DNA of 64,000 nucleotides from Acutalibacter sp. (GCA_022511515.1 JAFLRP010000128.1:3851-67850), one strand, 5' to 3'. Shown: positions 7,231 through 34,786, counted from the stretch's first letter. Program-made: numbers and translations. The notes: generated from the sequence alone by a model not told the origin.

Positions 7231-7578
7231 ATGTTTTTGACGCAAATTCTGGACTTTCTATCGGGGATCATCTATCTATTCCTGCACGTCACAGGCGGGG
7301 GGACGTTCCCGAAAGCCCTCAGCGCGCAAGAGGAGAAAAAATGTCTGGAAGAAATGGCACAGGGAAACGAAGCCGCCCGGCGCAAGCTGATCGAACACAA
7401 CCTGCGGCTGGTGGCGCATATTATCAAAAAATATTACGCAAATCAGAACGATCAGGAAGACTTAATTTCCATCGGCACCATCGGGCTCATCAAGGCCGTG
7501 GACAGCTTCAACGCCGACAAGGGAATCAAGCTGTCCAGCTACGCGTCAAGGTGTATAGAAAATACTATTCTCACATAG
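7231..7578 (+). CDS. sigK: sigK 5' segment (pro-sequence plus regions 1.2-2.4; spoIVCB-like), truncated by the intervening element
   Basis: MFLTQILDFLSGIIYLFLHVTGGGTFPKALSAQEEKKCLEEMAQGNEAARRKLIEHNLRLVAHIIKKY...DLISIGTIGLIKAVDSF...SYASRCIEN aligns with B. subtilis pro-sigma-K. After the core at 7555..7563 the frame reads TILT-stop. Confidence 0.88.
   Translation: MFLTQILDFLSGIIYLFLHVTGGGTFPKALSAQEEKKCLEEMAQGNEAARRKLIEHNLRLVAHIIKKYYANQNDQEDLISIGTIGLIKAVDSFNADKGIKLSSYASRCIENTILT
7555..7563 (+). repeat. left copy of the 9-bp recombination core (attL) ATAGAAAAT
   Basis: The identical 9-mer recurs at 34418..34426. Joining the two copies restores RCIEN|EILM in frame. Confidence 0.8.
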
Positions 7579-7799
7579 CGGACTTTTTGGAGTCGGAACA
7601 GGGAAAAGATACTCCCTTTTTGACGGAAAAACCGAAATGGCATTTTGCGTACCAAATCAGCGGCGATTCTTATGTGCTTTCCAAGCGGAAAAATGGGCAG
7701 ACAATTTGCACTTTGCTGGCAGTTCACAGTTTTCCATTTCTCCGTCCGAAAAAACTGGTTGATGCCGAGAAGTTCAATCTCCAATATCCCAAACCAGAG

Positions 7800-8222
7800 A
7801 TGCTAACAACCACAGCGGACAAGCTGCGGTATTACCGCTATCAAAAATCCCTGCTCCAGCGGGAAGTGGCGGAATACGCAGGGATCAATGAAAGCACCTA
7901 TATCGACTATGAAAGCGGAAACAGGGACTATTATCCCATCGACAAAATCCGGCGGATCGCCGATCTGCTGGAAATTCCGACAGAGACACTTCTGGACGAG
8001 TACAATCTGTTCCTCTGTAATCAGACCAAAACGCTGAAAGCCCTGCGGGAGCAGTGCGGGTGGACACAAAGCCAGCTTGCCGAAAAACTTTCCATAAGAC
8101 TTCACACCGTCAAACAGTGGGAGCAGGGAAGGGTGAGAATGACAAGGAAAATGTGGGAAAGACTTCAAAACCTCATGCCATCCAAATCGGTACGATCAGG
8201 TTGTTGCTGTCAAAGGCACTGA
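7800..8222 (+). CDS. XRE-family protein with two helix-turn-helix modules (start uncertain; frame open back to the att core at 7563)
   Basis: The two HTH modules are LRYYRYQKSLLQREVAEYAGINESTYIDYESGNR and LKALREQCGWTQSQLAEKLSIRLHTVKQWEQGR. The first ATG is at 7800, but the frame has no stop from 7563 onward. Confidence 0.6.
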   Translation: MLTTTADKLRYYRYQKSLLQREVAEYAGINESTYIDYESGNRDYYPIDKIRRIADLLEIPTETLLDEYNLFLCNQTKTLKALREQCGWTQSQLAEKLSIRLHTVKQWEQGRVRMTRKMWERLQNLMPSKSVRSGCCCQRH

Positions 8223-9402
8223 GCTGTTCTGCCATACAGAGAACAGCGCCTGTGCCAAGCTGCAGAGGGGACTTGTCGATGACGCCGAAAACACGAGTCA
8301 GGCGTTTGTCGGGCGTGGCGGTTTTCTTAATTTCCAGAGGGCAGAGCTTCCCGTCGCTCTCTAAGATCACATCGATTTCCTTAGAATCACGATCACGATA
8401 GAAATAGAGGTACGGCTCCAGTCCTGCGTTCTGATAGCCTTTCATGATCTCCGATATGGCGAAATTCTCAAGCAGAGCGCCGCTCATGGCACCGCTTTCG
8501 GCTACTTCCGGGGAGGACCAGCGGGTCAGATAGCAAACCAGACCAGTGTCGTAAAAATACACTTTCGGAGTTTTGATCGTGCGCTTGAGGATATTGTTGG
8601 AGTAGGGGTGCAGCAGGAAGATGATCCCCAGCGTTTCCAGAATGTTGATCCATGCCTTTGAGGTTGAAATGTCGATATCTGCATCGTCGGCCAATGCTTT
8701 GTAGTTCAAAAGCTGGGAGCAGCGGGCGGCAACGGCAGTGACAAAGCGATTGAACTTCAGAGCGTCTACGCTGCCCGAAAGCTCCCGCACATCTCGCTCC
8801 ATGTAGGTGGAAAGATAGGACGAATAGAAGACATTTCGGTCATCGTACTGTCCGCTGATGAGACCCGGCATAGAACCTTTCCAAATTCGCCGAAACAGTT
8901 CTGGGGTGGTGACGGGTTGGATCTGATTTTTCTCCAAGAGAAGCTGATTTAGATCTGTTGTAAACGGCACACAGGGCGCACCGATAATCTCCCGCTGGGA
9001 CATGGGGGACATATGCAAAAGCGCAACACGACCTGCCAGAGATTCCTGCACGCCGCGCATGAGACGGAACATTTGCGAGCCGGTCAGCCAGAAATCACCG
9101 GGATTGTGATGCCGGTCAATGTGAATTTTGAGATAAGAGAACAGCTCAGGCGCATATTGAACCTCGTCAATGAGAACAGGCGGCTTGTGAAGCTGCAAGA
9201 ACAGGGCAGGGTCATTCTTTGCCATGTCCCGCTCTGCGAGGTCGTCCAGCGTCACATAGCTCCGTCCGATGTTTTCTTTCTCTGCCAGCTCCCGCAGCAT
9301 AGTCGTTTTTCCTGCCTGCCGAGGTCCGGTCAGCAGAATGGCAGAGTAGGATTTGCTCAATTCCAAGATGCGGTTTTCCATATGTCTGCGAATGTATTTC
9401 AT
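8173..9402 (-). CDS. AAA-family ATPase (AAA_14/DUF4143-type)
   Basis: MKYIRRHMENRILELSKSYSAILLTGPRQAGKTTML carries a Walker A motif and VLIDEVQ a Walker B motif. The architecture is common on mobile DNA. Confidence 0.8.
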   Translation of the reverse strand: MKYIRRHMENRILELSKSYSAILLTGPRQAGKTTMLRELAEKENIGRSYVTLDDLAERDMAKNDPALFLQLHKPPVLIDEVQYAPELFSYLKIHIDRHHNPGDFWLTGSQMFRLMRGVQESLAGRVALLHMSPMSQREIIGAPCVPFTTDLNQLLLEKNQIQPVTTPELFRRIWKGSMPGLISGQYDDRNVFYSSYLSTYMERDVRELSGSVDALKFNRFVTAVAARCSQLLNYKALADDADIDISTSKAWINILETLGIIFLLHPYSNNILKRTIKTPKVYFYDTGLVCYLTRWSSPEVAESGAMSGALLENFAISEIMKGYQNAGLEPYLYFYRDRDSKEIDVILESDGKLCPLEIKKTATPDKRLTRVFGVIDKSPLQLGTGAVLCMAEQLSAFDSNNLIVPIWMA

Positions 9403-9712
9403 AAAAGCACCACCTGTAAGATTATTTCGGCAATTTTTGGGTTTATTCATATTATAGCCGAAATGAGCTGTACAGTCAACAAAATTTCGGCAGATTTATG
9501 ATATAGACAAAAACCTGCCGAAATATCACTGATAAACTCTATTCTGTCAGGTAATGGGAGCAGGGAAGGATAAGGATAGCGAAGAAAATGTGGAAGAGAT
9601 TTCTGTGTAACGGTATAGACGAGAGATCGTTCTTGAGAGAAATACCTTGACATTTTTTTCGCGTCAACGATATTCTGATACTAATTGATCCTAATAATTA
9701 TCGGAGGACGGT

Positions 9713-10715: not shown

Positions 10716-10906
10716 AGTTTCAGGACTTAGGTCTTCTCTCTTCCGCAAAGTACGGGGCGAGGATCAAGTATCGGGTAGCGGGATAGAGAGAGGTTCTTTG
10801 CGGACTCACAAATAGTGTGGTCTTCGTATGAGAGAAATTGACGCTAAATATATTCGAAAAGGTCTCCGTTACCGCAAAATTGCTATGATGGACGGGACGG
10901 TAAGCC

Positions 10907-11497: not shown

Positions 11498-11526
11498 ATA
11501 TCTTTCTACAAAAATCGACATTCCTC

Positions 11527-11555
11527 TTGAATTTATAAAACCTACAGGTTATAAT
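11527..11555 (+). promoter_or_regulatory. sigma-A-like promoter upstream of the AT-rich operon
   Basis: TTGAAT, a 17-nt spacer, then TATAAT. Such hexamers are frequent in AT-rich DNA, so support is weak. Confidence 0.3.
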
Positions 11556-11648
11556 GTATTTATATTTGTAAAGATATATAATAACAATAATATATAGTAA
11601 AACTATAGTGTATAAAAACTACCATTTTTAAGGGATGCACACAATAAA

Positions 11649-11825
11649 ATGATCAGTCCGTCCCCTTGTTTTTCACAATGGTTTGAAGGCAATATACGGG
11701 TTCTTCCATGCGATGATAACTCTATTGAAAACCTTTTCTATAAAGATGTAACTAGATTTTTGTTTATTCAAAATAAAAAGTTGAATATGTATTTTTTTCA
11801 ACAAAAGGAGAGGTATGTGAAATGA
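11649..11825 (+). CDS. 58-aa small ORF, possibly translationally coupled (ATGA) to the first operon gene
   Basis: My own translation is MISPSPCFSQWFEGNIRVLPCDDNSIENLFYKDVTRFLFIQNKKLNMYFFQQKERYVK. It falls below the ORF-track length cut-off. It stays open for 58 codons in ~30% G+C DNA, and its stop overlaps the ATG at 11822. There is no good RBS. Confidence 0.2.
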   Translation: MISPSPCFSQWFEGNIRVLPCDDNSIENLFYKDVTRFLFIQNKKLNMYFFQQKERYVK

Positions 11826-12472
11826 ATGAAAAAGATATTATATCTTCTGAAACAACAAATATTGCACTGTCTGCGGCTAGCTCTTTGGTAGGTTTTGCAA
11901 TTGGCGGTCCTGTGGGGGCAGTTGTTGGAGGTATCATGACACCTACTGTGAAATTGACTCACCTATTGATTAGTTCATGGTATGAAAGGCGTCAAGCGCG
12001 GATTACAAGTGTTGTAGAAGAAGCATTTGCAAGCTCAGGAAGAGAAGAAGAAGATATACTTCAGGAACTGTTAGAAAAGCCAGAATGGGCAGATTCTGTT
12101 GTCTCTATTATTCAACAATTAGTTTATACCGATCCAGAATTAGATAAATTATTCGCTAAAATTCTGGCTTCAGCTATAAAAACGGATGATGATAATGAGA
12201 GAAATCGATTAATAGTGCTTAACAGTTCTATTAAAGGATTGAATAGTGTTCAAGTTCAGATTGTAAGATGTCTATTTGTAGAAAAAAATGGTACGCTATC
12301 TGCTACAGAAATTTCAAAAAAGGTTAATGTTCCAGAAATAGATTTGAGAAATGCGGTTAGGGACTTGGAGCTAAGAGGGATGATCATTGATAATAGAACG
12401 GAACCCACAGTCTGGAAGCTGAGGGAATTAGGGATCGCTGTAGCAAAAGCAATTGATGTTTTGGAGGTGTAA
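11822..12472 (+). CDS. glycine-zipper (GxxxGxxxGxxxG) protein with C-terminal winged-helix domain
   Basis: SLVGFAIGGPVGAVVGGIM forms a GxxxG ladder. The C-terminal LSATEISKKVNVPEIDLRNAVRDLELRGMIIDNR looks like a MarR/wHTH fold. The RBS is AGGAGAGG. Confidence 0.7.
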   Translation: MNEKDIISSETTNIALSAASSLVGFAIGGPVGAVVGGIMTPTVKLTHLLISSWYERRQARITSVVEEAFASSGREEEDILQELLEKPEWADSVVSIIQQLVYTDPELDKLFAKILASAIKTDDDNERNRLIVLNSSIKGLNSVQVQIVRCLFVEKNGTLSATEISKKVNVPEIDLRNAVRDLELRGMIIDNRTEPTVWKLRELGIAVAKAIDVLEV

Positions 12473-12474
12473 AA

Positions 12475-13617
12475 ATGGAGTATATGTATTTTAATAATGC
12501 AGGCGCAGGAATAATGAGTCCTGCAACCTATAAAACTGTGCTTGATCATATGGCCCTTGAAATGAAGATTGGCGGATATGCAGCCGCTAATGTTAAAAGT
12601 GATGAGGTGAATCAATTTTACTCACTTGCTGCTAATTTATTAAACGCCCGCTCAAAGGACGAAATAGCATTTATTGATAGTGCCAGTCGAGGTTGGAATC
12701 TGGTTATGTACGGGTTAAATATTTCTAAGGCTGATACGATTGTTACTTTAGCGAGTGAGTATGGAACCAATCTACTAACTATCTATGACATTGCAAACAA
12801 GACATGTTGTGGTGTTAAAATTGTTAAGTGTGATGATAAAGGAATCTTCAATCTCGAGGATGTTGAGCAAGCATTAATAAGTGGAGGTACTATTTTGGCT
12901 GTTAGTCATGTTGCAGCTCAAGGTTCTATTGTTAATCCAGTTATTGAACTTGGCGCGCTTGCTAAAAAATACAATGTAACATATATTGTGGATGGATGTC
13001 AGGCAGTAGGGCAGATAAGAGTAGATGTTCAGCAAATAAATTGTTGTGCGTATATTACTGCTGGTCGTAAATGGTTGAGAGGTCCCCGAGGTACTGGTAT
13101 TTTATATGTGAGAAAAGATGCACCGATTCATACCCCACAAATTGACTTGGCATCTGCAGATTTGGTTTTTGATGAATTAGGAGAGGTGATAGATGTTAAA
13201 ATTCGAGAAGATGCGAAACAATTTGAATTATGGGAAAAAAGCACGGCGTCTCTATTAGGCTTGAGGAACGCTATTCAAGAGTATTTAGACTTTGGCATTG
13301 AAAATGCAGAGAAAGAAATATATGAAAAGGCTAATTATATTAGGAAATCTATCGTTAACAATCCTAATCTTTCATTAGTGGGAAGTGAGGTTTCTTCTTC
13401 TGGAGTGGTCGGATTTTATGTAAAAAACCCCCAGAGCGAAAACCTTGTTAAAGAAAGACTTGAAAAGCACAACTTTATTATTTCCTACATTTGCGATTGG
13501 GATTGCCCTATTTTCTTTCCCAAAAATGGAATTCATTATGTCTTCCGAATTTCGCCCCATTATTATACTAGTAAAGAGGAAATCCAAGCCATTTGTCAAT
13601 TAATTCAGGAATTATAA
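12475..13617 (+). CDS. class V aminotransferase-fold PLP-dependent enzyme (cysteine desulfurase/epimerase-like)
   Basis: FNNAGAGIMS, VSHVAAQGSIVNPV and IVDGCQAVGQIRVDV are present. AGRKWLRGPRGTGILYV is the PLP-lysine loop pattern. The RBS is GGAGGTG. Confidence 0.8.
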   Translation: MEYMYFNNAGAGIMSPATYKTVLDHMALEMKIGGYAAANVKSDEVNQFYSLAANLLNARSKDEIAFIDSASRGWNLVMYGLNISKADTIVTLASEYGTNLLTIYDIANKTCCGVKIVKCDDKGIFNLEDVEQALISGGTILAVSHVAAQGSIVNPVIELGALAKKYNVTYIVDGCQAVGQIRVDVQQINCCAYITAGRKWLRGPRGTGILYVRKDAPIHTPQIDLASADLVFDELGEVIDVKIREDAKQFELWEKSTASLLGLRNAIQEYLDFGIENAEKEIYEKANYIRKSIVNNPNLSLVGSEVSSSGVVGFYVKNPQSENLVKERLEKHNFIISYICDWDCPIFFPKNGIHYVFRISPHYYTSKEEIQAICQLIQEL

Positions 13618-13651
13618 ATTGTCTTTTTAATAGACGCAGAGGATAACGAAT

Positions 13652-14698
13652 ATGAACAATTATCAGACAATACTAAGTAGGAATTTGCCACAGTACGCCG
13701 AAAATGAACAGGTTTGTATTACAGGAGTTATTTGTAAAAAATGGGGAAGCAAAAATCATTTTGGCATATCTGTTAAGGATATAACCGGGACTGTTAGTAT
13801 AAGTTTTTTCAATAGTACAAAAGGTTATTCTAAGGAGTTATTTGCTATCGGAAACCGAATACGGATATATGCTAGTGTTTGCATTGATCGCAGAGGTTCT
13901 AAATGTCTTGGTAATGTTGATAACGTGGAATTTCTTGAGGAAATCAGTCAGTTCAATAAAGAATTTGATATTCTTGAACAGGAATCACTCGTAATGCTGA
14001 GCATAATTAGCAATAAGATATGTGCACAATTAGTTAATCTTGGTTATATTGAAGTAAGTACGCGTGTTATATCAAGATTTTTAGGAGAAGAATTACTGGA
14101 GCCCCTTTTTGCAGAGTACCCCGGCTTTGGTACTCCAGCATACTTATCTCCTTCACCCTCATCTCAATTGTCGGAATTTTTAGCTGTCACATTATTACCA
14201 AAAGTGTTTACCGAAACAATTTCTTTTACTACAAGTCATCGTTTTCCGAATGGCTCAACTGAAATGCCAATTATTATGGCAAAAGCTATTAACATGCACA
14301 AGGCCGAAGAAAAAAATGCTGTTCTTCGCATTTCAAAAAGTATCGTTAACTCATTGTCAGATAAGACATTTCAAGTAGATACCATCTTTGGCAATTGGGA
14401 CGATGTATCACCGTTGAACCAAAATCGTACTAATGGCACTTTTACATACGGTATATATTCGTCCAATATTCCAACCGTTGGTCGCAAATGGAATTCCGTG
14501 GTTTGTACCATTTACAGATTTGAGGATGATAAAGGGAATTTATTAGTAGAAGGTTCAACTGAAGCAATAAATGATACTACAAGTATCACTACCTTTACAT
14601 TCTATCCTTCGCAATTTTTGAATTGGATATCAAAGGCACCGAAACGCCAGCTACTCAACTTGTGGAAGATGTATGACGGAGGAAGTATATATGGCTGA
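13652..14698 (+). CDS. class IIb aminoacyl-tRNA synthetase paralogue (Asp/Asn/Lys-RS-like), apparently catalytically degenerate
   Basis: It shows an N-terminal OB-fold pattern VCITGVICKKWGSKNHFGISVKDITGTVSISFF. Motif-1-like LGYIEVSTRVIS and YLSPSPSSQL are present. Motif 2 is replaced by SFTTSHR, and the protein ends at ...DGGSIYG, where motif 3 should lie. It is only 348 aa. Confidence 0.6.
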   Translation: MNNYQTILSRNLPQYAENEQVCITGVICKKWGSKNHFGISVKDITGTVSISFFNSTKGYSKELFAIGNRIRIYASVCIDRRGSKCLGNVDNVEFLEEISQFNKEFDILEQESLVMLSIISNKICAQLVNLGYIEVSTRVISRFLGEELLEPLFAEYPGFGTPAYLSPSPSSQLSEFLAVTLLPKVFTETISFTTSHRFPNGSTEMPIIMAKAINMHKAEEKNAVLRISKSIVNSLSDKTFQVDTIFGNWDDVSPLNQNRTNGTFTYGIYSSNIPTVGRKWNSVVCTIYRFEDDKGNLLVEGSTEAINDTTSITTFTFYPSQFLNWISKAPKRQLLNLWKMYDGGSIYG

Positions 14699-16577
14699 TA
14701 ATTATAGCATTGTAGAGCCGTTAGGTAATCAAGATCGAGACACCAAACTTGAACGATATTGGAAGAGTTTTGAAGGCAAATATGGACTTAGAACATCACG
14801 TATAATTCAATTTGATCCTTACGCTTCAATGTCAAGATCTCCAGTTCAGTATAAACTGGAGAAGTTCAATCTAAATAGGGATATCCCCAGTCAAGAATGG
14901 ATTAGAGACAATTTGAAACAGTTTATTCGAGAAGAGATAATGGTGTCTGCTTCCGAGATACCTCAATATTTTTCTCCCGAAATAGATGGCGAAATAATTC
15001 TTCCAGACGAATATCTTACTGATTTTTTGCATAATAGTGAATGGGATAATTTTTTGAAAGTTGAGCTGCCAAAAGATGATACTGATTCAGAGATGGCTAA
15101 TTGCATTTATAGACTCTTATGCAATCCTCAAATAGGGTCATCGAAAAATGCAGTCAATAACGACGAATCAGAATTTATTAACCACATTCTTCCCTTGATT
15201 GAGCAAAGAAAGCGTCTTCTATTTGTATTACCGGGTTTTCCATTTAAGGACCAGAACAAGTTTCGGGTTCCTTATGATGCGGCTCGCATTGATTTTAGCG
15301 AAATATCTTTCATAATACGTTTGCATAATCTCATTCAATCCTTATATCAAGTTCATCCATTTGGAGCGGAAGCGATCGTACTTTCTGATGGTCGCTTATA
15401 TCAGGATATCTTCTATATAGATCCCATAGAAGTAGAAGAGTACCAATGGAGATTACATGACTATAGAAATAAGCTGAACATTCAGGGGGATGTTTCCATT
15501 ATCGACTTGATGGATTTAATAGAGCGAGCAAATGAAGATGGAGAGATAACAAAATTGATCCAACATCTGGAAACTGTTATTTCAAATGATTATGCGCAAG
15601 AAGATTTTTTTCTTAATCTTATTCAGGGCATGAAATGGAACTTGAATTCAAGAAAGCTTCTCAAAGATTATGATGACATTGATTCATGGAATATAATTAA
15701 GAGTAATCGCTGTGATGTTAGAAGGGATTTGCTTAAAATTTGGAATGATTATCATAATATTGCAAAAGAAGCCGCAGTAAGATATGCGGCTGTTAATCTA
15801 ATGTTGAAGTGGACTGACTTGATTCGGAAATTTTTTCCTGAATCTATTAGGTGTACTGTCCATGCAAAAAAGAATCAATTTGCATTAGCAAAGAGTTACG
15901 CTTGGAATGGTATTGCATGGTCAGAAAGGTGGCCAAAGACATTGAGGGATATTACTACAGTACCATTTTACATGTTAGGAAAGTATGTTAAAGTTAAACT
16001 TGCAACGTTTCAAAGCACGAAGTTTCCTTGCTTTTTTACAACAGAGCGGTATAATCAAAATTTAGATTATGCGAAAAACATTCTTGAAGCAGATGGGTGG
16101 AATGTAGACAATATTTTTGGAAGAGAATTTAACATTTTTGATTTAGCGGAATTTGTTGAACTTGGTAGAGATGATGAAAATTTTGCATGGGAAAAGAAAG
16201 AAATGTCTGAAGAGTACTATAAAGCGCTACTTCAATTCCGCATTGGCCATTATAAAAAGTACGGTTTCGGTGTACATGCTATATTTATGGATGGTAATCT
16301 TATAGGCCAGATGGGATTACAGGTATTAGATGAGCAGAAAAACCAGATAGAATATGTAATCTTTCTCGGAAAAGATTATGTGCATAAGGGAATTGGCTCT
16401 AAACTATTGAAATATTTATTTTCTAGGTGCAAGGAAGAAGGTCTTACGACTGTGTTTGGCGTGATTCGTAGTGATAACGATATTTCAAGACACATTGTGG
16501 AGAAATTCGGAGGGAAAATGGTTAGGACAATGGCTCATTATCATCAATCTGGAGTTTTATATGAGATCGAACTATGA
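14691..16577 (+). CDS. DIT1/PvcA-family (isonitrile synthase / N-formyl-tyrosine family) domain fused to a C-terminal GNAT acetyltransferase
   Basis: LLFVLPGFPFKDQNKF...LYQVHPFGAEAIVLSDGRLYQDIF...EVEEYQ aligns by eye with PvcA IHFVLPAFPAKSPN...YAPGARLTICSDGRVFSD. FPESIRCTVHAKKNQ matches FP..LRLSIHPQ. The GNAT motif A is YVHKGIGSKLL. The start at 14691 has GGAGG 7 nt upstream and overlaps the previous stop by 8 nt. Confidence 0.7.
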   Translation: MADNYSIVEPLGNQDRDTKLERYWKSFEGKYGLRTSRIIQFDPYASMSRSPVQYKLEKFNLNRDIPSQEWIRDNLKQFIREEIMVSASEIPQYFSPEIDGEIILPDEYLTDFLHNSEWDNFLKVELPKDDTDSEMANCIYRLLCNPQIGSSKNAVNNDESEFINHILPLIEQRKRLLFVLPGFPFKDQNKFRVPYDAARIDFSEISFIIRLHNLIQSLYQVHPFGAEAIVLSDGRLYQDIFYIDPIEVEEYQWRLHDYRNKLNIQGDVSIIDLMDLIERANEDGEITKLIQHLETVISNDYAQEDFFLNLIQGMKWNLNSRKLLKDYDDIDSWNIIKSNRCDVRRDLLKIWNDYHNIAKEAAVRYAAVNLMLKWTDLIRKFFPESIRCTVHAKKNQFALAKSYAWNGIAWSERWPKTLRDITTVPFYMLGKYVKVKLATFQSTKFPCFFTTERYNQNLDYAKNILEADGWNVDNIFGREFNIFDLAEFVELGRDDENFAWEKKEMSEEYYKALLQFRIGHYKKYGFGVHAIFMDGNLIGQMGLQVLDEQKNQIEYVIFLGKDYVHKGIGSKLLKYLFSRCKEEGLTTVFGVIRSDNDISRHIVEKFGGKMVRTMAHYHQSGVLYEIEL

Positions 16578-16589
16578 AAGGAGCATATA

Positions 16590-17009
16590 ATGCCTGTTTG
16601 CTATATAACATTATCAGAAATCAAACCAGAACTAACTAACGAAGAAATTCAATGTATAAGAAAAATAGTAGCAAAGGGATTGGATTCGACTTCCAAAAAA
16701 CTTGATGAGACACATATTGTTACACGTACGCATTATTCAAGTCGAGAATCTATGCTAGGTGATATCGAGATTGATATTTTTTCGCAATTATATTTAAGGC
16801 GACTATTCTCAAGAGATAAACGAGCAAACTATATTTCAAAGCAAATTTCGGAATTTTTAGGATGTTGCTGCGCAACTTGGATAAATATGGAGATTGTTGG
16901 TTATTCAAGGGTTGCACTCGACGGTAATGTTTTCTATTCGGACTCCGATAATTTTTTCGTTCGTCTTTTTCAAAGGGTTAGAGGTGTATCTACACACAAG
17001 AACAAGTAG
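16590..17009 (+). CDS. 139-aa protein; possible tautomerase-superfamily member (N-terminal Pro1, two beta-alpha-beta units)
   Basis: MPVCYITLSEIKPELTNEEIQCIRKIVAKGL resembles the 4-OT-type MPxxxIxL...helix pattern. The RBS is AAAGGAG. The functional call is weak. Confidence 0.55.
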   Translation: MPVCYITLSEIKPELTNEEIQCIRKIVAKGLDSTSKKLDETHIVTRTHYSSRESMLGDIEIDIFSQLYLRRLFSRDKRANYISKQISEFLGCCCATWINMEIVGYSRVALDGNVFYSDSDNFFVRLFQRVRGVSTHKNK

Positions 17010-22950: not shown

Positions 22951-22968
22951 ACTATTCCCGCCTCCATC

Positions 22969-27025: not shown

Positions 27026-27912
27026 ACCGCCGCCTCCTTTGAGGTCTCTCGGAAATGGTAGAGGTACAAATCTTCCAGATTGGGTTGGACGGGTACGCCA
27101 AGGGGACAGGAATCCCCCACAATTCGTAGTAGGACTTGTTCTCCCTGACTCTGCACATTGCCCACTAGAGCCTTAGCCTGCCAAGCGGTGACCTCCTTGG
27201 GCGCAACTGCAAGGGAAAATACCTTTCCCACCATGCTTTCCCGCAACGCTTGCGGTGTATCCCGGGCAATGAGCTTTCCCGCCCGCAGCATCAGAATGTC
27301 CTTGGCGATAAATTCAATGTCCGAGACAATGTGGGTGGTCCAGATCACGATTTTGTCCAGCGCCACCGTGGCGATAGTGTTTCTGAGCCGTACCCGCTCC
27401 TGGGGGTCCAGCCCTGCGGTGGGTTCGTCCAAAATCAGGAGCTTCGGGTCGTTTAAGAGGGCTTGGGCAATGCCCAATCTTTGGCGCATGCCGCCGGAAA
27501 ATTCCCCGATCTTCCGCCGTGCGTCCCCTTGGAGGTTTACCGTTTCCAGCAACCGGTCCACGGTAATTCCCAGTTCCTTCTTGCTCAGCTTCATGCCCTT
27601 TACCGCCGCCATATAGCAAAGAAATTCGTCCGCCCGGAAAGATTTGTACAGGGAGGGCGTCTGGGGCTGAAAGCCTAAGATATCCCGAAATCTCCAGTCA
27701 AGAACGGAAATGTCCTCTCCGTCCCATAACACTCTGCCACCAGTGGGTCGCAAAATGCCCGCAATGATATTCACCAGCGTGGTTTTCCCCGCGCCGTTTG
27801 GTCCAAGTAATCCGTGTACGCCCTCGTTTAGGGAGAAAGATACCGTATTAAGCGCCTTACAATTCCGATAGTCCTTTGTGATTTTCTCTACAGAAAGTTC
27901 CATATATAACAT
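27022..27912 (-). CDS. ABC transporter ATP-binding protein
   Basis: Walker A GPNGAGKTT, the signature FSGGMRQR and Walker B LLILDEPTAGLD are present. Confidence 0.9.
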   Translation of the reverse strand: MLYMELSVEKITKDYRNCKALNTVSFSLNEGVHGLLGPNGAGKTTLVNIIAGILRPTGGRVLWDGEDISVLDWRFRDILGFQPQTPSLYKSFRADEFLCYMAAVKGMKLSKKELGITVDRLLETVNLQGDARRKIGEFSGGMRQRLGIAQALLNDPKLLILDEPTAGLDPQERVRLRNTIATVALDKIVIWTTHIVSDIEFIAKDILMLRAGKLIARDTPQALRESMVGKVFSLAVAPKEVTAWQAKALVGNVQSQGEQVLLRIVGDSCPLGVPVQPNLEDLYLYHFRETSKEAAV

Positions 27913-28958
27913 TATCCTTTCCCATCATTCTTGATAAGCTGTATTTTTGCAGAAGCCATTGTATCAGGGGAAATGTTTTCCAGATCAAGCGGAACTGAAA
28001 CAGTATAAAAACTAACACTCTTTGCAGCTTCTAAATCAATCTGAATCGGCAACTGTAGCATTTCTTCCTCTTTTGACACCCAATCGCAATAACGGTAAAC
28101 ATTGCCGTTATATGTAAATGGTGTAAGAACCCCGTCTAGGAGGAGAATAGTCCGATACATTCCGGGTTTCGATGCAACAGCTTCAAAAAGGAAAGAATGA
28201 TTATTATTTATAAGTAATTCTCTTGACCCAATAGAATCGTTTTCTAATACGACATAATTATCTTCCCACAGCCAAGCGTTATAAGCTCCATCTGTATACA
28301 AGCCCTGAAGACCATTTCTTTGCACAACTGTCCCACATAAAGGGTCTGGTACAAGTGGAGTCTTTTCACTTTCATTCTGTATAATTTTTACTGTGTAGCT
28401 GGTCATGTGATAGTCAGACAGAGGGTCCTCATCGTAAAACAATAGAAAATCTAATCTCCCTATGTTTTCACAAAATTCAGGTTCCATTTTAACATCTAAT
28501 TCAGTTTGTTGGTTCGATAGCAAAAGCGGATATTTTGTATAACTGTCGCCATCTATGTCAAAAGCGGTAGGGATTCCATCTGCCAGTATAATCATGTAAT
28601 AGGCCTGTGATTGGTTCAGCCCATTTTGAATAACGACTCTTGCGTTTACTTCCCTACCGTTAATTTTGTATGTATCGCTCTGCAAGTTTTCGGAAGACCA
28701 TTGCTGTTCGTATTCTGAAAGGCTAACCCATATCCCTGCCATCCATTGTACCGCCGGATTTTGAGCTAATTTTCCCATGCCATCTGGCATTCTAAGACCA
28801 CTTTCAGATTCTGAATCATTATTTTTTCCTTCGGTTAGAAAATCCTTGGAAGATGTGACCGAAATTCTTGAAATCGCATTTGTACCTATCGCAATTATTG
28901 CAAAAGAAATGATGAAAACAAAGGTCCAAATCAATATGCTTTCTATTGCTCTTTTCAT
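27912..28958 (-). CDS. membrane-anchored extracytoplasmic protein, unknown function
   Basis: It has a single N-terminal TM (ILIWTFVFIISFAIIAIG). The rest is hydrophilic and beta-rich. It sits in an operon with the ABC genes. Confidence 0.55.
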   Translation of the reverse strand: MKRAIESILIWTFVFIISFAIIAIGTNAISRISVTSSKDFLTEGKNNDSESESGLRMPDGMGKLAQNPAVQWMAGIWVSLSEYEQQWSSENLQSDTYKINGREVNARVVIQNGLNQSQAYYMIILADGIPTAFDIDGDSYTKYPLLLSNQQTELDVKMEPEFCENIGRLDFLLFYDEDPLSDYHMTSYTVKIIQNESEKTPLVPDPLCGTVVQRNGLQGLYTDGAYNAWLWEDNYVVLENDSIGSRELLINNNHSFLFEAVASKPGMYRTILLLDGVLTPFTYNGNVYRYCDWVSKEEEMLQLPIQIDLEAAKSVSFYTVSVPLDLENISPDTMASAKIQLIKNDGKG

Positions 28959-28962
28959 AATG

Positions 28963-30045
28963 TCAATACCCTAACAAATCCACTCTTGATCCGGTCTTGG
29001 AAACATAATAAACAGCGTTTTCTGTATTGTTTTCCTCACTTATGCTTATGACAATCATTTCGTCTGCGTCGGGTTCAAGCATATAAATTTGATATACAGG
29101 AACCGGAAATTCCACAAGTTTCTCTATTTTGGTCGGATCATCTTTTGGGAATCGATAAATGTCATGGCTGTCCGCATTTGTCATATTGTTGTCCGTATAG
29201 TATCGGAAATAGAAATAATCTTTGTCAAAATTCCAACTTGCAACTAAAACAGGTCGATCTGTGATCTGTTCAGGATTGCTTCCGTCCATCTGACAACGAT
29301 ACAACAAGCCGTCGCCGTATTTTGCATAATAAAGATACTTTCCATCTGTTATATAATCCGCATTCTCGATAAGCGTTTCAGGTTCAGCTCCTTCCTCTGA
29401 TAAGTTTAGCCTATGTATGCCTCCATATTGGTAGTATAAATAATCGTCACAGATTGCCTCCCAATAGCCGGTATACTCCTCAATCAGAGTTCGGGAATTC
29501 TGTTGATTACCATCCTCAAAGACCACGAGCGAAGAATCCGTTGTTGCTACAAAAAGATCGTCTCTGCCGTGGAAAAAGTGGGAAACTCCGCCATTGATTA
29601 GGGGTTCAAAGCGTCCATCGTTCAACTTCATGACCCGACCTGCCTTCTGCTCGCTTTTTCCATATACCTCCCCATTAAAGAACTCCAAATTTGATTCTAC
29701 CCTTCCTGCTATGCAAGTATCTGATACGTGGTCACAAGTGGCATCCTTACAAAAATTTGTCACAGTATTCGTTGCCATATCATAACTTAACAGGTCTATA
29801 CGCCCCTGCTCTTGATTAGTTTTCGTGAAAATGAGTTTTCCGTCTACAGTAACGAAGTTGCCGGAAGGAACATTTTTTTGCATATTTCCGTTTTGAATAT
29901 CTAGATTATGGTGTTTAGCAATAGTTTCGTTATTTGTAGCAGAAAAGTCTTCCGAACTAGCGGATGGTTCTTTACTTGTTGTAGAACACGCCGTCATCAT
30001 ACCAATAATCACAAAGATAATTAGTGCACTCCATGTCTTTTTCAC
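28963..30045 (-). CDS. lipoprotein, beta-propeller-like (DUF5050-like repeats)
   Basis: The signal peptide carries the lipobox MMTAC. Repeated YLYY/YFYF-type blades occur (KYLYYAKYGDGLLYRCQMDGSNPEQI). Confidence 0.6.
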   Translation of the reverse strand: MKKTWSALIIFVIIGMMTACSTTSKEPSASSEDFSATNNETIAKHHNLDIQNGNMQKNVPSGNFVTVDGKLIFTKTNQEQGRIDLLSYDMATNTVTNFCKDATCDHVSDTCIAGRVESNLEFFNGEVYGKSEQKAGRVMKLNDGRFEPLINGGVSHFFHGRDDLFVATTDSSLVVFEDGNQQNSRTLIEEYTGYWEAICDDYLYYQYGGIHRLNLSEEGAEPETLIENADYITDGKYLYYAKYGDGLLYRCQMDGSNPEQITDRPVLVASWNFDKDYFYFRYYTDNNMTNADSHDIYRFPKDDPTKIEKLVEFPVPVYQIYMLEPDADEMIVISISEENNTENAVYYVSKTGSRVDLLGY

Positions 30046-30124
30046 AATTATCCCCCCAAAAAGTTAAAAAGGAACAAAGAGATTTAATCACACCAAATTT
30101 CTTTGTTCCTTTTTTATTCCTCGA

Positions 30125-30529
30125 CTACGCGTAGACCTTCAAATTAGTCGACCAGTTCCCCCATCTTGTACCTCCCTCAACTTTATGCTGAGAGGTGGCA
30201 TAATAGCCGGATCTTGTCGAGGTTGCTGAATAAGCAGAACTTGTGCCCCTGACGGTAGGATTTGTGTGTTCTAAGCCCGTCGAAGGCACGATGTAAGTAA
30301 AGGTGACATATGTCGTCAGAGATACCCCATCAGTCGTTCCAGCAGTTGTTGTGGCAGTTGCGGAATTTGGATCGACAGTCAAAGAGGCCCAAACGTTTAG
30401 TGTGCCGGATGTTCCAGTAGTGGTGCCGCTTTTTGAGGTGGATCCAGCAAAGGCAGACATGCTGAACGTCAAACAAATAGCGGCTGCCAGAACAGCAGAA
30501 ATAATCCTTTTTGCCATATTCATATGCAT
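30125..30529 (-). CDS. small secreted Thr/Ser/Gly-rich protein
   Basis: The signal peptide AKRIISAVLAAAICLTFSMSAFAGS is clear. Alternative starts lie at 30523 and 30517. I do not recognise a family. Confidence 0.55.
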   Translation of the reverse strand: MHMNMAKRIISAVLAAAICLTFSMSAFAGSTSKSGTTTGTSGTLNVWASLTVDPNSATATTTAGTTDGVSLTTYVTFTYIVPSTGLEHTNPTVRGTSSAYSATSTRSGYYATSQHKVEGGTRWGNWSTNLKVYA

Positions 30530-30780
30530 CTCTCCTCTTTTGAAAAAAGTAATTATTCCGGTTCTTCACCAACCGCAGTACCGGCTGCCTGCGTTCCTTT
30601 CAGAAAAAGGGCTCGGTTGATCATTCCGTTCCCCTGCGGGCTTGTACCCGACCGGCGTCGGCAATCCGCCGATCATATCATAAATGCTTGCCGTGCATTT
30701 ACGAACAACTAGAAAGGTTCATTTTGCAAAGAGAACGTTTCTAAGTCACTATAGATTACCTCTCTAAGCATATATTTTTA

Positions 30781-30805
30781 TTTTTATAATAATTTATTAT
30801 AAAAA
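30781..30805. promoter_or_regulatory. 25-bp palindrome (12-bp perfect arms) in the divergent control region; candidate operator
   Basis: TTTTTATAATAA-T-TTATTATAAAAA sits between the divergent secreted-protein/ABC operon and the padR operon. Confidence 0.35.
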
Positions 30806-30822
30806 ATTTGTCAAGAAAAATC

Positions 30823-30851
30823 TTTACATTCCCAATTTTTTTTGGTATAAT
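30823..30851 (+). promoter_or_regulatory. sigma-A-type promoter of the padR operon
   Basis: TTTACA, a 17-nt spacer, then TGgTATAAT (extended -10). Confidence 0.5.
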
Positions 30852-30883
30852 ACCTAATGGCAAGTGACGAAAGGATTTTTTCC

Positions 30884-31222
30884 ATGGGTTTACGAGACAG
30901 CTTCAAAAAGGGATCGTTGGAAATGCTGGTTTTGGCACTTCTGAAAAGCGGCGATAAATACGGATATGAGATTTCCCATCTGATTGGCGAGCGCGGCTCA
31001 AATGTTCTTGCCGTCCCGGAGGGGTCTCTTTATCCTACTTTTTACCGACTGGAAAACGAGAAATACATCAGTTCCTATAAAAAGCTGGTGGGGGAACGCC
31101 GTACTCGGGTGTATTATCATTTGGAGCCTAGCGGTGAACAACGACTTGATCTTTTGGTCAAAGAGTATCAAATTGTCAGTCAGTCTATTCAAAAAATACT
31201 GACCGGACTTGTAGAAGAATAG
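30884..31222 (+). CDS. PadR-family transcriptional regulator
   Basis: LEMLVLALLKSGDKYGYEISHLIGERG...VPEGSLYPTFYRLENEKYISSY...RVYYHLEPSG is present. The ATG at 30884 has GAAAGGA upstream. The track start at 30857 sits on the predicted transcription start. Confidence 0.85.
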   Translation: MGLRDSFKKGSLEMLVLALLKSGDKYGYEISHLIGERGSNVLAVPEGSLYPTFYRLENEKYISSYKKLVGERRTRVYYHLEPSGEQRLDLLVKEYQIVSQSIQKILTGLVEE

Positions 31223-31234
31223 AGGAGGATCACA

Positions 31235-31645
31235 GTGGAAAATGCCATCGCTTGTGAGTATTTGAAAGAGATCAAGCGTACTTTGCCTGAGACTATTGCC
31301 GACAGGCGTAAATTCCTTGAAGACTTTGAAGAAAATCTGGAATCCTACTTACAGGAAAATCCCAATGCGGTTCGGGAAGACCTCGTTCATAGATTTGGTT
31401 CTCCCGAAGTCATTGTGGAATCTTTTCTGCCGGAAGCCCCCACAGGGGAAGTGCTGAGGACGGAGAAACAAAAGAAATTGCGCAAAAGGCTTATCATCGC
31501 CTTTTTTGCCATTTGTGCGATCATTCTGATTGCGCTGTTCGCATATCGCGTGTGGGATATGCATGGTTTCTATCATGGATATGCTGCGACAACTGGTGGG
31601 GAAGGAGAGCCCCCCGAAGATACTTCCGCCCTAGTTATCTTTTGA
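31235..31645 (+). CDS. PadR-associated membrane protein (DUF1700-like)
   Basis: The N-terminal helix YLKEIKRTLPE... and the C-terminal TM LIIAFFAICAIILIALFAY fit the family. It has a GTG start with GAGGAGGA upstream. Confidence 0.6.
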   Translation: MENAIACEYLKEIKRTLPETIADRRKFLEDFEENLESYLQENPNAVREDLVHRFGSPEVIVESFLPEAPTGEVLRTEKQKKLRKRLIIAFFAICAIILIALFAYRVWDMHGFYHGYAATTGGEGEPPEDTSALVIF

Positions 31646-31695
31646 AGAGCTTCTACTTATATATAGAAACAAAAAATTAAAAGGAGTCTTATATT

Positions 31696-32154: not shown

Positions 32155-32715
32155 CTATTTACATCTCGAAAGAGTGCATTATGAGGACCCTATCTTCCCG
32201 GCTGCCAAGAATTTAAGAACAGTGTGAATCTGAAGGTAGGACTGGAAGCACGTATGGTAGTGTGAGCGTAAAGCATGGAAGTGTAACTGCTTCCAAAATG
32301 TCAGATTTAACATGCAACGGTTACGATGACCTGTTGTAATTCGGTTGCAGCATGGGGTGTGTCTGATTGAATTGGTCTGAACATGAGACAAGTTACCAAA
32401 ACAGTTTACAGAATAATCTCCCGGTAGTCGAGTAGTATTAAGGCTGCCGGGTTTTGTTTATTGTTTGGGGGTTCAAAATCTGCTTTTCCCGTTTTGCGGA
32501 GACCTCATTGTGAGTCGCTGTAGTCGAAAGGCTCATATCCCGATATCTCTTTATTCTAAAACATCCGTTTATTTTAGCTAGATATCCCAGCTGAGCTTTT
32601 ACTTTTCTCACTAACGCCATTGCTTTTTCTCTTCATCTATTTTATAATAAACCATCATCAATCCAAAACGTGACATTAAATTTTAATTTATAACATTTGA
32701 AAGGGGGAGATCACC

Positions 32716-34428
32716 ATGAAACAACCAGACACCCGCAGTTTTGCCATCTATTCCCGGAAATCGAAGTTTACGGGGAGAGGGGAGAGCATCGAAAATCAAA
32801 TTGAGCTGTGCAGACAGCGGCTGCGGTCCATGGAAGTGCCGGAGGAGCAGATCGTTGTGTTCGAGGACGAGGGCTTTTCCGGCGGCAACACCCAGCGCCC
32901 GCAGTTTCAGGCAATGATGCGGGAGATCCGGGTGGGGAACATTCAGGGCGTGATCTGCTACCGTTTAGACCGCATCAGCCGCAACGTGCTGGATTTTGCG
33001 GAGATGCAAAAGGAGTTCGGCGAGCATGGGGTGGATTTCATTTCTCTGCGGGACAATTTCGACACTACCACCCCCACGGGCCGCGCCATGATGCTCATGT
33101 CCTCCGTCTTTGCCCAGTTGGAGCGGGAGACCATCGCAGAGCGGATCCGGGATAACATGTACGAGCTGGCGAAAAGCGGCAGATGGCTGGGCGGGCGCAC
33201 GCCCACCGGGTACAGGAGCATTCCGGTCACGGGCAGCGTGACGGTGGACGGGAAAGTCCGCAGGGCGTATCGGCTGGAAACGATCCCGGAGGAAGCGGAG
33301 ATCGTGCAGCTCATTTACCGCAAATTTTTGGAGACCTACTCTCTTACCAAGGTGGACGCCTATCTGCTGGAGCAGGGGATCAAAACGAAAAATGGCAGGG
33401 AGTTTACCCGCTTCTCCATCGGCAATATTCTCCGCAACCCGGTCTATGCGGTGGCGGACGAGGCGGCGTGGGAATACTTTGAGCAAAATCAAGTGGAGGT
33501 CTACGCGCAGCGCGGAGATTTTGACGGAAACTGCGGCGTGATGGCATACAACAAGACCTCCCAGAAGCCGGGGAAAACCAACCAGACGCGGGCCATGGAG
33601 GATTGGATCGTCTCGGTGGGCAGGCACCAAGGGTTGATCTCCGGCGCGGACTGGGTGCGGGTGCAGGAAATCCTGGACCGGAACAAATCGAAATCCTACC
33701 GAAAGCCGAAAAGCAATGTGGCGCTGCTGTCTGGTTTGCTGTTCTGCGGAAACTGCGGCAGCTATATGCGCCCCAAGTTGACCATTCGACAGAACGCCGC
33801 GGGCGAGTACATTTACACCTATCTGTGCGAAAAGAAGGAACGCAGCCACGGATCGGTATGCAAACAAAAGAACATAAACGGCAACGAGCTGGATAAAGCG
33901 GTTTGCAAGCAAATTTGTGCGTTGACGGAAGACACCTCCGAGTTTCAGAAACAGATGAAAAAGGTCAGGACGGCGTTTGAGGGCAGTAACAGCGGGCATA
34001 GGAGCCGCTTGGACGCGCTGATGAAAGAGAGCAAGGAAAACGAGGTGAAGATCAAAAATCTGGTGGCAAGTCTGGAAACCGCGGCGGGGACGGCTTCCGC
34101 CGAGTATATCACCGGGCAGATCAACGAGCTGCATGAAAAGCAGCAGAAGCTGGAAAGCCGGATCGCCGAACTGGAAAGCCTGACTTGGGACACCGCGTAT
34201 TCCGACGCCGATTTTGCCGTGCTGCAGGAGGCTCTGGAAAACTTCAGCGTTGCCTTTGACACCATGACCGTGGAACAGAAGCGGGCGGCGCTGCGGGTGT
34301 TCGTGCGGAAAATCGTCTGGGACGGGGAAAATATCCATGTCTATCTCTTCGGCGACCCGGAGGGAGAAGTCGATTTCAGCAGCTTTCCGGCGGAATGTGT
34401 AGAGCCGATCGGCACGGATAGAAAATGA
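32716..34428 (+). CDS. large serine recombinase (SpoIVCA-like) of the sigK intervening element
   Basis: FAIYSRKSKF...ESIENQ carries the Ser nucleophile region. VICYRLDRISRN, the zinc-ribbon cysteines CGNCGSYM...YLCEKK...SVCKQ and a C-terminal coiled coil are present. The stop TGA spans the core/sigK boundary. Confidence 0.9.
   Translation: MKQPDTRSFAIYSRKSKFTGRGESIENQIELCRQRLRSMEVPEEQIVVFEDEGFSGGNTQRPQFQAMMREIRVGNIQGVICYRLDRISRNVLDFAEMQKEFGEHGVDFISLRDNFDTTTPTGRAMMLMSSVFAQLERETIAERIRDNMYELAKSGRWLGGRTPTGYRSIPVTGSVTVDGKVRRAYRLETIPEEAEIVQLIYRKFLETYSLTKVDAYLLEQGIKTKNGREFTRFSIGNILRNPVYAVADEAAWEYFEQNQVEVYAQRGDFDGNCGVMAYNKTSQKPGKTNQTRAMEDWIVSVGRHQGLISGADWVRVQEILDRNKSKSYRKPKSNVALLSGLLFCGNCGSYMRPKLTIRQNAAGEYIYTYLCEKKERSHGSVCKQKNINGNELDKAVCKQICALTEDTSEFQKQMKKVRTAFEGSNSGHRSRLDALMKESKENEVKIKNLVASLETAAGTASAEYITGQINELHEKQQKLESRIAELESLTWDTAYSDADFAVLQEALENFSVAFDTMTVEQKRAALRVFVRKIVWDGENIHVYLFGDPEGEVDFSSFPAECVEPIGTDRK
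34418..34426 (+). repeat. right copy of the 9-bp recombination core (attR) ATAGAAAAT
   Basis: It is identical to 7555..7563 and is read in the same codon phase (xAT AGA AAA T). Confidence 0.8.
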
Positions 34429-34786
34429 AATCCTCATGTTTTTCCGCAGCGGGAAAAAGAGCGCGCAGGATATTTCCATCAACGAGCCTATTGAGACGGA
34501 CAAATCAGGGAACACGCTGACGCTGATGGATACCATGGCGGTGGACGACACCATCATCGACAATCTGGATATCAAGATGAAAAGCGAGAAGCTGTACGGG
34601 CTTCTGGACAGCGTGCTGACCCGGCGGGAAAGGAGCATCATCTGGCTGCGGTACGGCTTGGGCGGCGGAAAACCCTTGCCCCAGCGGGTGGTGGCGAAGA
34701 AACTGGGCATTTCCCGGAGCTATGTATCCCGCATCGAAAAAAAGGCCCTGCAAAAGCTGCGGGGGCAGTTTGATGAGGAAGAATGA
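34427..34786 (+). CDS. sigK: sigK 3' segment (regions 3-4; spoIIIC-like)
   Basis: EILMFFRSGKKSAQDISINEPIETDKSGNTLTLMD...RERSIIWLRYGLGGGKPLPQRVVAKKLGISRSYVSRIEKKALQKL contains the region 4.2 HTH. It continues the RCIEN frame of the 5' segment. Confidence 0.88.
   Translation, partial: EILMFFRSGKKSAQDISINEPIETDKSGNTLTLMDTMAVDDTIIDNLDIKMKSEKLYGLLDSVLTRRERSIIWLRYGLGGGKPLPQRVVAKKLGISRSYVSRIEKKALQKLRGQFDEEE

Follow-up and report, generated by a model that had tools for sequence, protein, structure and literature searches.

Skin elements are a textbook case of developmentally programmed DNA rearrangement, and the wiring of their timing and directionality is known for only two of them. In B. subtilis, both spoIVCA and skr are sigmaE-controlled (PMC6957869). 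In C. difficile, the large serine recombinase (LSR) CD1231 has a sigmaA-type promoter and its timing is given by a separate sporulation-specific factor (PMC5025042). The elements skinCd, skinCt and phiS63 insert near nucleotide (nt) 427 of sigK (PMC3442830). The survey of Galperin et al. (bioRxiv 10.1101/2022.02.25.481979) listed skin elements in 15 Firmicutes, of 2.6-48 kb, with the recombinase gene usually immediately upstream of spoIIIC and no shared gene besides it. We analysed a stretch of 64,000 nt from Acutalibacter sp. (GCA_022511515.1 JAFLRP010000128.1:3851-67850), called here the window, in which sigK is precisely interrupted by a skin-like, LSR-bearing element. It is probable that this is a sigK-intervening skin-type element of 26,863 bp (crossover to crossover) in a spore-forming Acutalibacter-like genome, with an LSR of a family recombining a ~50-bp attP with sigK, and that it would be excised. 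The parts on which the analysis turns are the following.

7231..7563 (+), sigK 5' half (sigK-N): 111 codons, pro-sequence-like extension and regions 1.2-2.4
7563..8222 (+), double helix-turn-helix (dHTH) open reading frame (ORF): disordered linker, small beta unit and two XRE-type helix-turn-helix (HTH) domains
32716..34428 (+), LSR gene: 570 aa as integrated, stop TGA at 34426-28
34427..34786 (+), sigK 3' half (sigK-C): 119 codons plus stop, regions 3-4

The two sigK parts are co-oriented, and their joining in frame led to a full-length SigK of 230 aa. sigK-N ends ...SYASRCIEN and is followed by TILT-stop, with the in-frame TAG at 7576-7578; the sigK-C protein begins EILMFFRSGKK and ends QKLRGQFDEEE. 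The joined protein matched the NCBIfam SigK model NF004471 in a single stretch (residues 3-229) with 293.6 bits for a cutoff of 252, and scored 216.8 bits with the SigE model; it was slightly under the cutoff of the stricter SigK model TIGR02846 (281.7 vs 298.65). The 9-mer ATAGAAAAT is present at 7555-7563 and at 34418-34426 in identical codon phase, and the insertion falls at nt 333 of sigK. A reference-genome scan yielded 80 related sigK loci, essentially all uninterrupted, among which 8 were inspected for breakpoints. The closest intact relative (L001, a Bacillota metagenome-assembled genome, MAG) showed 93% protein identity, and those at ~76% were labelled Acutalibacter, Neglectibacter and Oscillospiraceae. 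When the window was compared by blastn with the intact loci, the alignment ended at 7562/7563 and restarted at 34418 in 8/8 of those inspected, and the subject coordinates overlapped by exactly 9 bp wherever the alignment extended to 7563. Since the alignments break exactly at these positions, the insertion is fixed to the base. The interior of the insert has no DNA in common with any of the 80 loci by blastn, and its G+C content is 0.35-0.50, compared with ~0.55 in the flanks. The initial annotation had proposed one sigK split by ~26.9 kb, the same 9-mer in the same codon phase at both junctions and a retained pro-sequence; the split and the 9-mer were confirmed, the split also by the comparison with insert-free loci, and the N-terminal extension of sigK-N aligned with the pro-sequence region of B. 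subtilis. The 9-mer by itself is weak evidence, because it was found 5 times in the window for 0.63 expected, and the empty-site breakpoints are much stronger. We found no second sigK-like gene within the window. The Rfam gathering scan and the tRNA scan of the window gave no matches, so the insert does not target a tRNA or a non-coding RNA.

The LSR contains Resolvase (PF00239), Recombinase (PF07508) and Zn_ribbon_recom (PF13408) domains and matched the PHROG 95 integrase (E 8e-120). Its Ser16 aligned with the catalytic Ser of SpoIVCA, the YSRKS motif is invariant across the family, and a coiled-coil insert is probably present, judging by the position after the zinc ribbon. A 570-aa recombinase ending exactly on the right core had been predicted; the length and the position at the edge stood, and the end could be corrected, as the stop codon straddles the boundary between the 9-mer and sigK-C. 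Of the TGA, the first base closes the 9-mer and the other two open sigK-C; the codon lies on the host side of the crossover. At least 120 full-length homologues, with 54-95% identity, were among the matches listed. The genomic context fetched for seven of them (55-94% identity) gave ten loci (L081-L090), and in all ten the first codon of sigK-C is that for the E of EILM, placed where the LSR gene ends or overlapping this end. The LSR abuts sigK-C at the same codon in L091 and L092 and, likewise, in nine IMG/VR loci (L097-L103, L107, L112) with 43-58% identity to the query fusion. The family (43-95% identity) is therefore found at the same sigK site in 21/21 integrated loci examined. L098, considered as an exception devoid of sigK-C, was rejected as such, as it abuts a sigK-C with the diverged start NEFRMQF. 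A single-protein scan of IMG/VR with P0046 gave no match, whereas the alignment-based scan did yield loci; among deposited phage genomes, the best matches were 35-40% identical across the LSR part only and none was fused. This LSR family is widespread in gut bacteria of the Oscillospiraceae/Acutalibacteraceae group.

The DNA common to the window and its closest relatives is restricted to two blocks, one at 7215-8157 (sigK-N and the adjoining dHTH ORF; L093, 80%) and the other at 32620/32642-34779 (promoter, LSR and sigK-C; L081 87%, L082-85 84%). The conserved backbone of the family consists only of the dHTH and of the LSR with its promoter, and the cargo differs in every element examined. In the relatives it includes SIR2/STALD/TIR, AbiEii, Cap4 nuclease and SMC-like, GmrSD, D5 primase, rolling-circle Rep and insertion sequence elements. 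The sigK site is in this respect a docking point for interchangeable cargo in gut spore-formers, much of it with anti-phage defence signatures. The source of the window appears metagenome-assembled, and an assembly or binning artefact could have joined unrelated contigs within sigK; however, the window reproduces the family architecture base for base at both junctions (LSR stop on the sigK-C boundary, attP arms, dHTH ORF), and the same architecture is present in more than 20 independent assemblies, the isolate genome L091 (Ca. Soleaferrea massiliensis) among them, which makes such an artefact extremely improbable.

Two other arrangements were seen among relatives. In L088 (1055-2820; GCA_964322635.1, CAYDHZ010000101.1), sigK is apparently in at least 3 pieces: a second LSR, of 563 aa, ends within a middle sigK fragment (aa ~66-110, beginning around KKYY), and sigK residues 1-65 are absent from the 10 kb upstream of this fragment. 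The second LSR would target a different site of the same gene. A more distant LSR group (38% identity, 540 aa, own stop) is carried by IMG/VR phage contigs of ~85-116 kb (L127-L142). In its free forms L131, L133 and L134, an HTH-containing ORF crosses the junction ~60 bp past the LSR stop; the ~60 bp are also present in L129 and L138, which end there, and in L135, which diverges from that point on. This group thus has a related LSR-att-HTH layout.

The attachment sites were then delimited, their extent of ~50 bp being an estimate.

7536..7588 (+), attL: crossover dinucleotide AA predicted at 7561-7562
34398..34450 (+), attR: crossover AA predicted at 34424-34425

The 9-bp repeat had been put forward as the core of recombination. 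The repeat is there, but the crossover is most likely the AA at 7561-62 / 34424-25 rather than the whole 9-mer. In L088 and L089, for which both junctions are visible and the 9-mers differ, only the AA at positions 7-8 is common to attL and attR, and a crossover there restores I-E-N-E. In attP sites rebuilt by combining the left arm of attR with the right arm of attL, dyad symmetry peaked on the AA in three elements (11, 13 and 17 of 22), with off-centre scores of mostly 2-8 and two outliers of 10 and 11. The natural attP sites of the free forms L095 and L096 showed a dyad on the same AA (12 and 16 of 22). The crossover was placed at AA because it is the sole dinucleotide shared in L088/L089 and because attP symmetry peaks on it. 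The symmetry of attB in the window is weak (6/22), as is common for attB sites. The identity extends over 9 bp in the window because the host ATA-GAA-AAT resembles the attP left arm (ggATAGnnAA). The predicted reconstituted sigK junction is ...TGTATAGAAAATGAAATC..., the predicted attB is ...GTCAAGGTGTATAGAAAATGAAATCCTCATG... and the predicted attP is ...GATCGGCACGGATAGAAAATACTATTCTCACATAGCGG....

The target of the family corresponds to the sigK codons for R-C-I-E-N-E-I-L, and this stretch is the most conserved part of sigK. The Ile codon ATA of the host target is also used by 13 intact metagenome sigK genes. These uninterrupted genes (L177-L190 metagenome contigs, from other, mostly human-gut species) carry exactly TGTATAGAAAATGAAAT(C/T)CTCATG and would serve as ready attB for the element family; L187 is an attL from another family member.

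We found that attP lies within an ORF, so that the integrated and free states encode different products. Simulated excision at the AA joined the LSR in frame with the dHTH ORF, leading to an ORF of 789 aa for the window, 800 aa for L088, 780 aa for L089 and 776 aa for L092; the junction was in frame in 4/5 elements overall. L091 has its own stop one codon ahead of the crossover, and there the dHTH is translatable only when integrated. Natural LSR-dHTH fusions exist in P0046 (773 aa) and P0117 (771 aa), which are colinear with the simulated products, junction included, and whose contigs are without any sigK fragment. One natural fusion is carried by L095, an 11.2-kb contig with a rolling-circle Rep gene, and another by L096, an 82-kb phage contig with endolysin, NrdD, DNA polymerase III beta clamp, dUTPase and methylases. 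Both natural fused ORFs contain an internal sequence homologous to the rebuilt attP. L095 was examined for circularity, and its ends do not overlap by 15 bp or more. Among the best 150 of the 1.84 billion cluster representatives surveyed, ~10 were at least 700 aa long; their length and a second matched stretch suggest that they are fusions, and P0385 (760 aa) was the only long representative seen matching over its full length. Because attP is inside the continuous LSR-linker-dHTH ORF of free elements, integration cuts the integrase gene. After integration, sigK-C DNA supplies the LSR stop codon, and the dHTH lands 3' of sigK-N in the same orientation. The literature searches made turned up no account of a serine integrase divided like this, and the split LSR-dHTH integrase appears undescribed. 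In the LSR-dHTH family, a third wiring is readable in the sequence, with attP inside the integrase ORF and the host gene completing both ends.

The dHTH ORF gave Pfam matches to HTH_31, HTH_19 and HTH_3. Its AlphaFold2 model (pLDDT 84.7) begins with 20 disordered residues, encoded by the attP arm, and further comprises a beta unit of three strands and two helical HTH domains. Of the homologues (206 matches), those whose context was examined (L088, L089/90, L091, L092, L093) were all located directly 3' of a truncated sigK-N, and a dHTH stands beside sigK-N in 6 independent elements. Many independent dHTH gene calls start with MYRK-, MYRE- or MHRK-, which is the +2 frame of the sigK codons (xxA TGT ATn GAA AAn); in those calls, host DNA thus supplies the start codon of the dHTH. 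In the window no ATG is found before 7800, and the candidate starts are GTG 7551, within sigK-N and the counterpart of the MYRK-type start, TTG 7587, 9 nt past the sigK-N stop, and TTG 7620. The position of the ORF start leaves no space for a promoter of its own, and no + strand terminator was found from sigK-N to the end of the ORF.

Several other features of the dHTH region were recorded. The dHTH frame is open for 444 nt upstream through all of sigK-N (+2 frame), giving a 367-aa ORF from TTG 7119 (7119-8222, +), and several database dHTH gene calls of 260-360 aa have a similar upstream extension; this openness is probably an effect of composition. P0167 (318 aa) is an in-frame chimera of sigma-K residues 1-111 and dHTH, and its element, when integrated, would make a truncated sigma factor fused to a DNA-binding protein. 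At its 3' side, the dHTH of the window is followed by an inserted gene and by a partial second copy.

8173..9450 (-), AAA_14/DUF4143 ATPase: PADLOC candidate defence gene PDC-S01, E 1e-108
9546..9603 (+), residual 3' end of a second dHTH: WEQGRIRIAKKMWKRF, 76% identical to 8109-8166

The segments 8109-8166 and 9546-9603 form a 58-nt direct repeat, the second copy of which encodes just the last ~16 dHTH residues, and the PDC-S01 ATPase gene lies between them. This arrangement suggests either insertion of a PDC-S01 cassette where the dHTH gene ends or a recombination of two related elements.

Two promoter regions bear on how the two products would be made.

7156..7191 (+), sigK promoter region: GTACAGGCA (7156-7164) and a CATA-type -10, TCATACATAT (7182-7191)
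32620..32648 (+), LSR promoter: TTGCTT (32620-25), 17-nt spacer, TATAAT (32643-48)

The blocks upstream of sigK are conserved in the alignment with related, mostly uninterrupted sigK genes, with C-A-T-A invariant. By analogy with B. subtilis and with the promoters described in PMC5025042, they presumably correspond to a sigmaE/sigmaK-type promoter and a SpoIIID-like box. The LSR promoter is conserved in 8/9 aligned elements, the free form L095 included, and the DNA common to the window and L082-L085 begins exactly at 32620. It is followed by a conserved AACGTGA...ATAACAT block and by a strong ribosome-binding site (RBS). Its sequence suggests that the LSR is constitutively expressed, as is C. 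difficile CD1231 (PMC5025042). The AACGTGA-(~14 nt)-ATAACAT block is situated at 32655-32700, between the LSR -10 and the RBS, and at the aligned positions of L081-L095, with the version TGTGA-N12-TCACA in L088; it is operator-like and could be a binding site of the dHTH.

A vegetative-type LSR promoter is also what would be expected of an ordinary integrative element that uses the conserved sigK as attB and excises by its own induction, through stress or transfer, the interruption of sigK being a cost. Its relatives do include a large phage and small Rep-carrying elements, and a target in the most conserved part of sigK would favour a broad host range. We consider this quite unlikely here. 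Domain and PHROGs searches of the window found no phage, replication or transfer genes in the insert, and this copy has none to induce; a sigK broken for good would be intolerable to a spore-former; the dHTH behind the sigK promoter recurs in six elements; and excision is mother-cell specific in the experimentally studied sigK elements (PMC5025042, PMC6957869).

For the skin-type element proposed here, the LSR of 570 aa, which keeps its own sigmaA-type promoter, would be made constitutively, and within the mother cell, in the course of sporulation, it would recombine attL with attR. Excision would then restore the in-frame pro-sigma-K gene and re-fuse the integrase. As to what would trigger this reaction, the dHTH is the only conserved partner of the LSR and is positioned as SprB relative to SprA in SPbeta (PMC6957869). 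The stop of L091 and the host-donated starts point to a role of the dHTH in the integrated state. That the sigK promoter drives the dHTH and that the dHTH triggers excision or sets its direction is within this explanation a tentative proposal to which we give slightly less than an even chance. The main alternative is a role in the free state, for example autoregulation at the conserved block before the LSR. A fuller version of the trigger proposal, in which transcription of the broken gene triggers its own repair through the dHTH and the integrase toggles between two isoforms by integration state, is possible but doubtful. The dHTH, devoid of a promoter, would be silent in vegetative cells; sigmaE and SpoIIID would fire the sigK promoter, and the dHTH would be made from a sigK-derived start or by coupling to sigK-N translation. 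Acting on the 570-aa LSR, it would then trigger the attL x attR reaction or give it its direction, and excision would re-fuse it. Should the detached HTH part indeed control excision, this would amount to a minimal switch that times itself and to a naturally split serine integrase, which makes it relevant to the engineering of integrases.

Other candidates for a recombination directionality factor (RDF) were tried and rejected. The small ORF 32438-32620(-), suggested in the initial annotation, and the ORF 32179-32391(-) gave no Pfam or NCBIfam match and lie outside the conserved block, the former just before its start at 32620/32642. A Skr-like ORF overlapping the LSR 5' end was dismissed, as the TTG ORF at +25 in some loci is an alternate frame of the conserved LSR N-terminus, absent in L086, L088, L095 and L096. 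A small single-HTH gene upstream of the LSR is found in the compact relatives L086, L088, L089, L091 and L095; it is not family-wide, since no such ORF is present at 32154-32716 in the window and none is called in L081-L085 (no tblastn for remnants was run).

A number of observations weigh against the explanation preferred here. The -35 of the LSR promoter is weak, with 3/6 consensus matches, for which reason it was not listed by the sigma-70 scan. The dHTH looks like an ordinary XRE DNA-binding protein: a Foldseek search with its model returned single XRE domains only (SinR, ImmR, P22 c2, C-proteins), and 0/50 of the listed matches were described as an RDF. It lacks an ATG start and is out of phase with the sigK-N frame, and in the window it ends in an aberrant 15-aa tail after the cassette insertion. 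Engineered integrase-RDF C-terminal fusions block attP x attB (PMC12286644). Free phages nevertheless have to integrate while encoding the fusion, so that a classical RDF role of the dHTH is disfavoured, at any rate in cis. The sequence comes from a MAG, in which strain heterogeneity is possible. The metagenome scan found no attB or attP of this strain, only the intact attB of other species and one foreign attL, and for that reason developmental excision is something that we infer.

The lack of an excised form and of a recognisable RDF would also suit an immobilised, decaying island, which entered via the LSR and cannot excise, with sigK effectively a pseudogene in a lineage that sporulates poorly or not at all; so would the absence of phage, replication and transfer genes and the signs of accretion and rearrangement (dHTH 3' remnant, Fic fragment in the cargo, mosaic G+C). 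We regard such decay as unlikely. The LSR retains its full length, its catalytic Ser and a conserved promoter; the two att arms are also intact, and the simulated fusion leaves an ORF open over 789 aa. The sigK halves are without frameshift or stop, with a dN/dS of 0.026 (5' half) and 0.083 (3' half) against the intact L001 sigK and of 0.06-0.14 against other split alleles; these values (0.03-0.14) indicate that both halves are under strong purifying selection. The adjoining germination operon is intact as well: sigK-C is directly followed by a YetF-family (DUF421) gene and then by a complete gerA-type germinant receptor operon (GerA, spore permease, GerAC), at 34805-39369. As these genes adjoin sigK-C, the host looks like a spore-former, in keeping with the skin-type element preferred here.

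The remainder of the insert is cargo.

11822..17009 (+), low-G+C (~35%) operon: TrmB/Abi_alpha-like gene, class-V aminotransferase, 348-aa gene without named family, DIT1_PvcA-GNAT fusion, 139-aa ORF
17978..18919 (-), tyrosine recombinase: catalytic R, H-x-x-R and Y conserved; Pfam and PHROGs integrase
20020..24402 (-), UvrD-type helicase + PD-(D/E)XK nuclease (976 aa) and Dcm-Vsr fusion (477 aa): candidate defence or restriction-modification-like pair
24720..31645, ABC-2 permeases, ABC ATPase, one gene without named family and DUF5050 (-); PadR and DUF6120 (+)

The tyrosine recombinase had been called a nested tyrosine integrase. The gene is present, but it is 70% identical in aa to a gene of L086 (2852-3766), and this makes it recurrent cargo rather than clear evidence of a nested element. 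It may serve in dimer resolution, as a second integration module or as a regulator. L081 carries an unrelated tyrosine recombinase (22% identity) with a weak MrpR_C_cat match, and a PDB sequence search with the window protein gave no match. The DIT1_PvcA protein of the 35%-G+C operon is an isonitrile/dityrosine-type synthase fused to a GNAT acetyltransferase; its yeast namesake DIT1 makes a spore-wall precursor, and the likeness may be coincidence. The cargo is presumably variable accessory DNA without part in the switch. Beyond the gerA operon, two asparagine synthase paralogues are located at 40696-42552 and 45181-47085.

Among the described systems, the element resembles the skin of B. subtilis, in which an LSR also splits the pro-sigma-K gene and a pro-sequence-like N-terminus is kept. 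The initial annotation had likened the locus to skin/SpoIVCA; the skin-type architecture stands, but the LSR is not a SpoIVCA orthologue, being only 26% identical to it in a comparison made with the genuine B. subtilis protein (P0241). SpoIVCA and SprA show the same ~26% level (PMC4191935), and the SpoIVCA relatives, at 48-98% identity, are a set separate from the window LSR family. spoIVCA abuts sigK-N in opposite orientation, whereas in the window it is sigK-C that the LSR adjoins, and the two are co-oriented; a sigmaA-type promoter seems to serve the LSR, unlike the sigmaE-controlled spoIVCA and skr; a Skr-like overlapping ORF is not conserved in the window family; and the B. subtilis skin is a 48-kb defective prophage, whereas no phage genes were found in the window element. 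The spoIVCB product (L094) reads ...RCIENEI|VITKGG vs RCIEN|EILM here, so that the B. subtilis element breaks sigK two codons from the present break. Two LSR lineages with only generic homology, the window family and SpoIVCA, thus target the same few sigK codons.

With the skinCd of C. difficile, compared by literature description, the window shares the co-orientation of LSR and sigK and, as far as promoter alignments indicate, possibly the wiring, with a sigmaA-type LSR and a separately timed factor. The insertion at nt 333 is unlike that of skinCd at ~427, and C. difficile sigma-K is without pro-sequence (PMC5025042), whereas the sigK of the window has a pro-sequence-like extension. CD1234, also compared by description, is encoded by a small gene apart, which has a sigmaE/SpoIIID promoter of its own; the candidate factor in the window is the detached C-terminal part of the integrase and would be driven by the sigK promoter. 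Relative to the surveyed Firmicutes skins, the size is in the range, and the LSR at the edge upstream of spoIIIC, the unrelated cargo and the phage-related recombinases are alike; however, those elements have no second shared gene, whereas the window family has the dHTH, which in the free form is within the integrase ORF.

SPbeta in spsM likewise restores a mother-cell gene by excision during sporulation, and its partner SprB is at the end opposite to SprA when integrated, as is the dHTH, and becomes its neighbour across attP once excised (PMC6957869). SprB, however, is encoded separately by a small gene that has stress and sporulation promoters of its own, and it is not naturally fused to SprA, and integrase-RDF fusions such as PDB 9dxd are engineered. 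An attP that divides a gene has its own precedents, among which the intP/intX of Myxococcus phage Mx8, where attP is inside the coding sequence. In mycobacteriophage BPs, attP is within the repressor gene, and the integrated and free states encode different isoforms (PMC4557955). Both involve tyrosine integrases, and it is the repressor or the integrase tail that is truncated, whereas in the window an LSR is parted from its dHTH; unlike in BPs and Mx8, the stop and the start of the new ORFs are both completed by host sporulation-gene DNA. Skin elements as such were already known; what sets this one apart is the split integrase, the host-completed ORF ends, the family-wide fidelity to the site and its near-coincidence with the site of B. 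subtilis.

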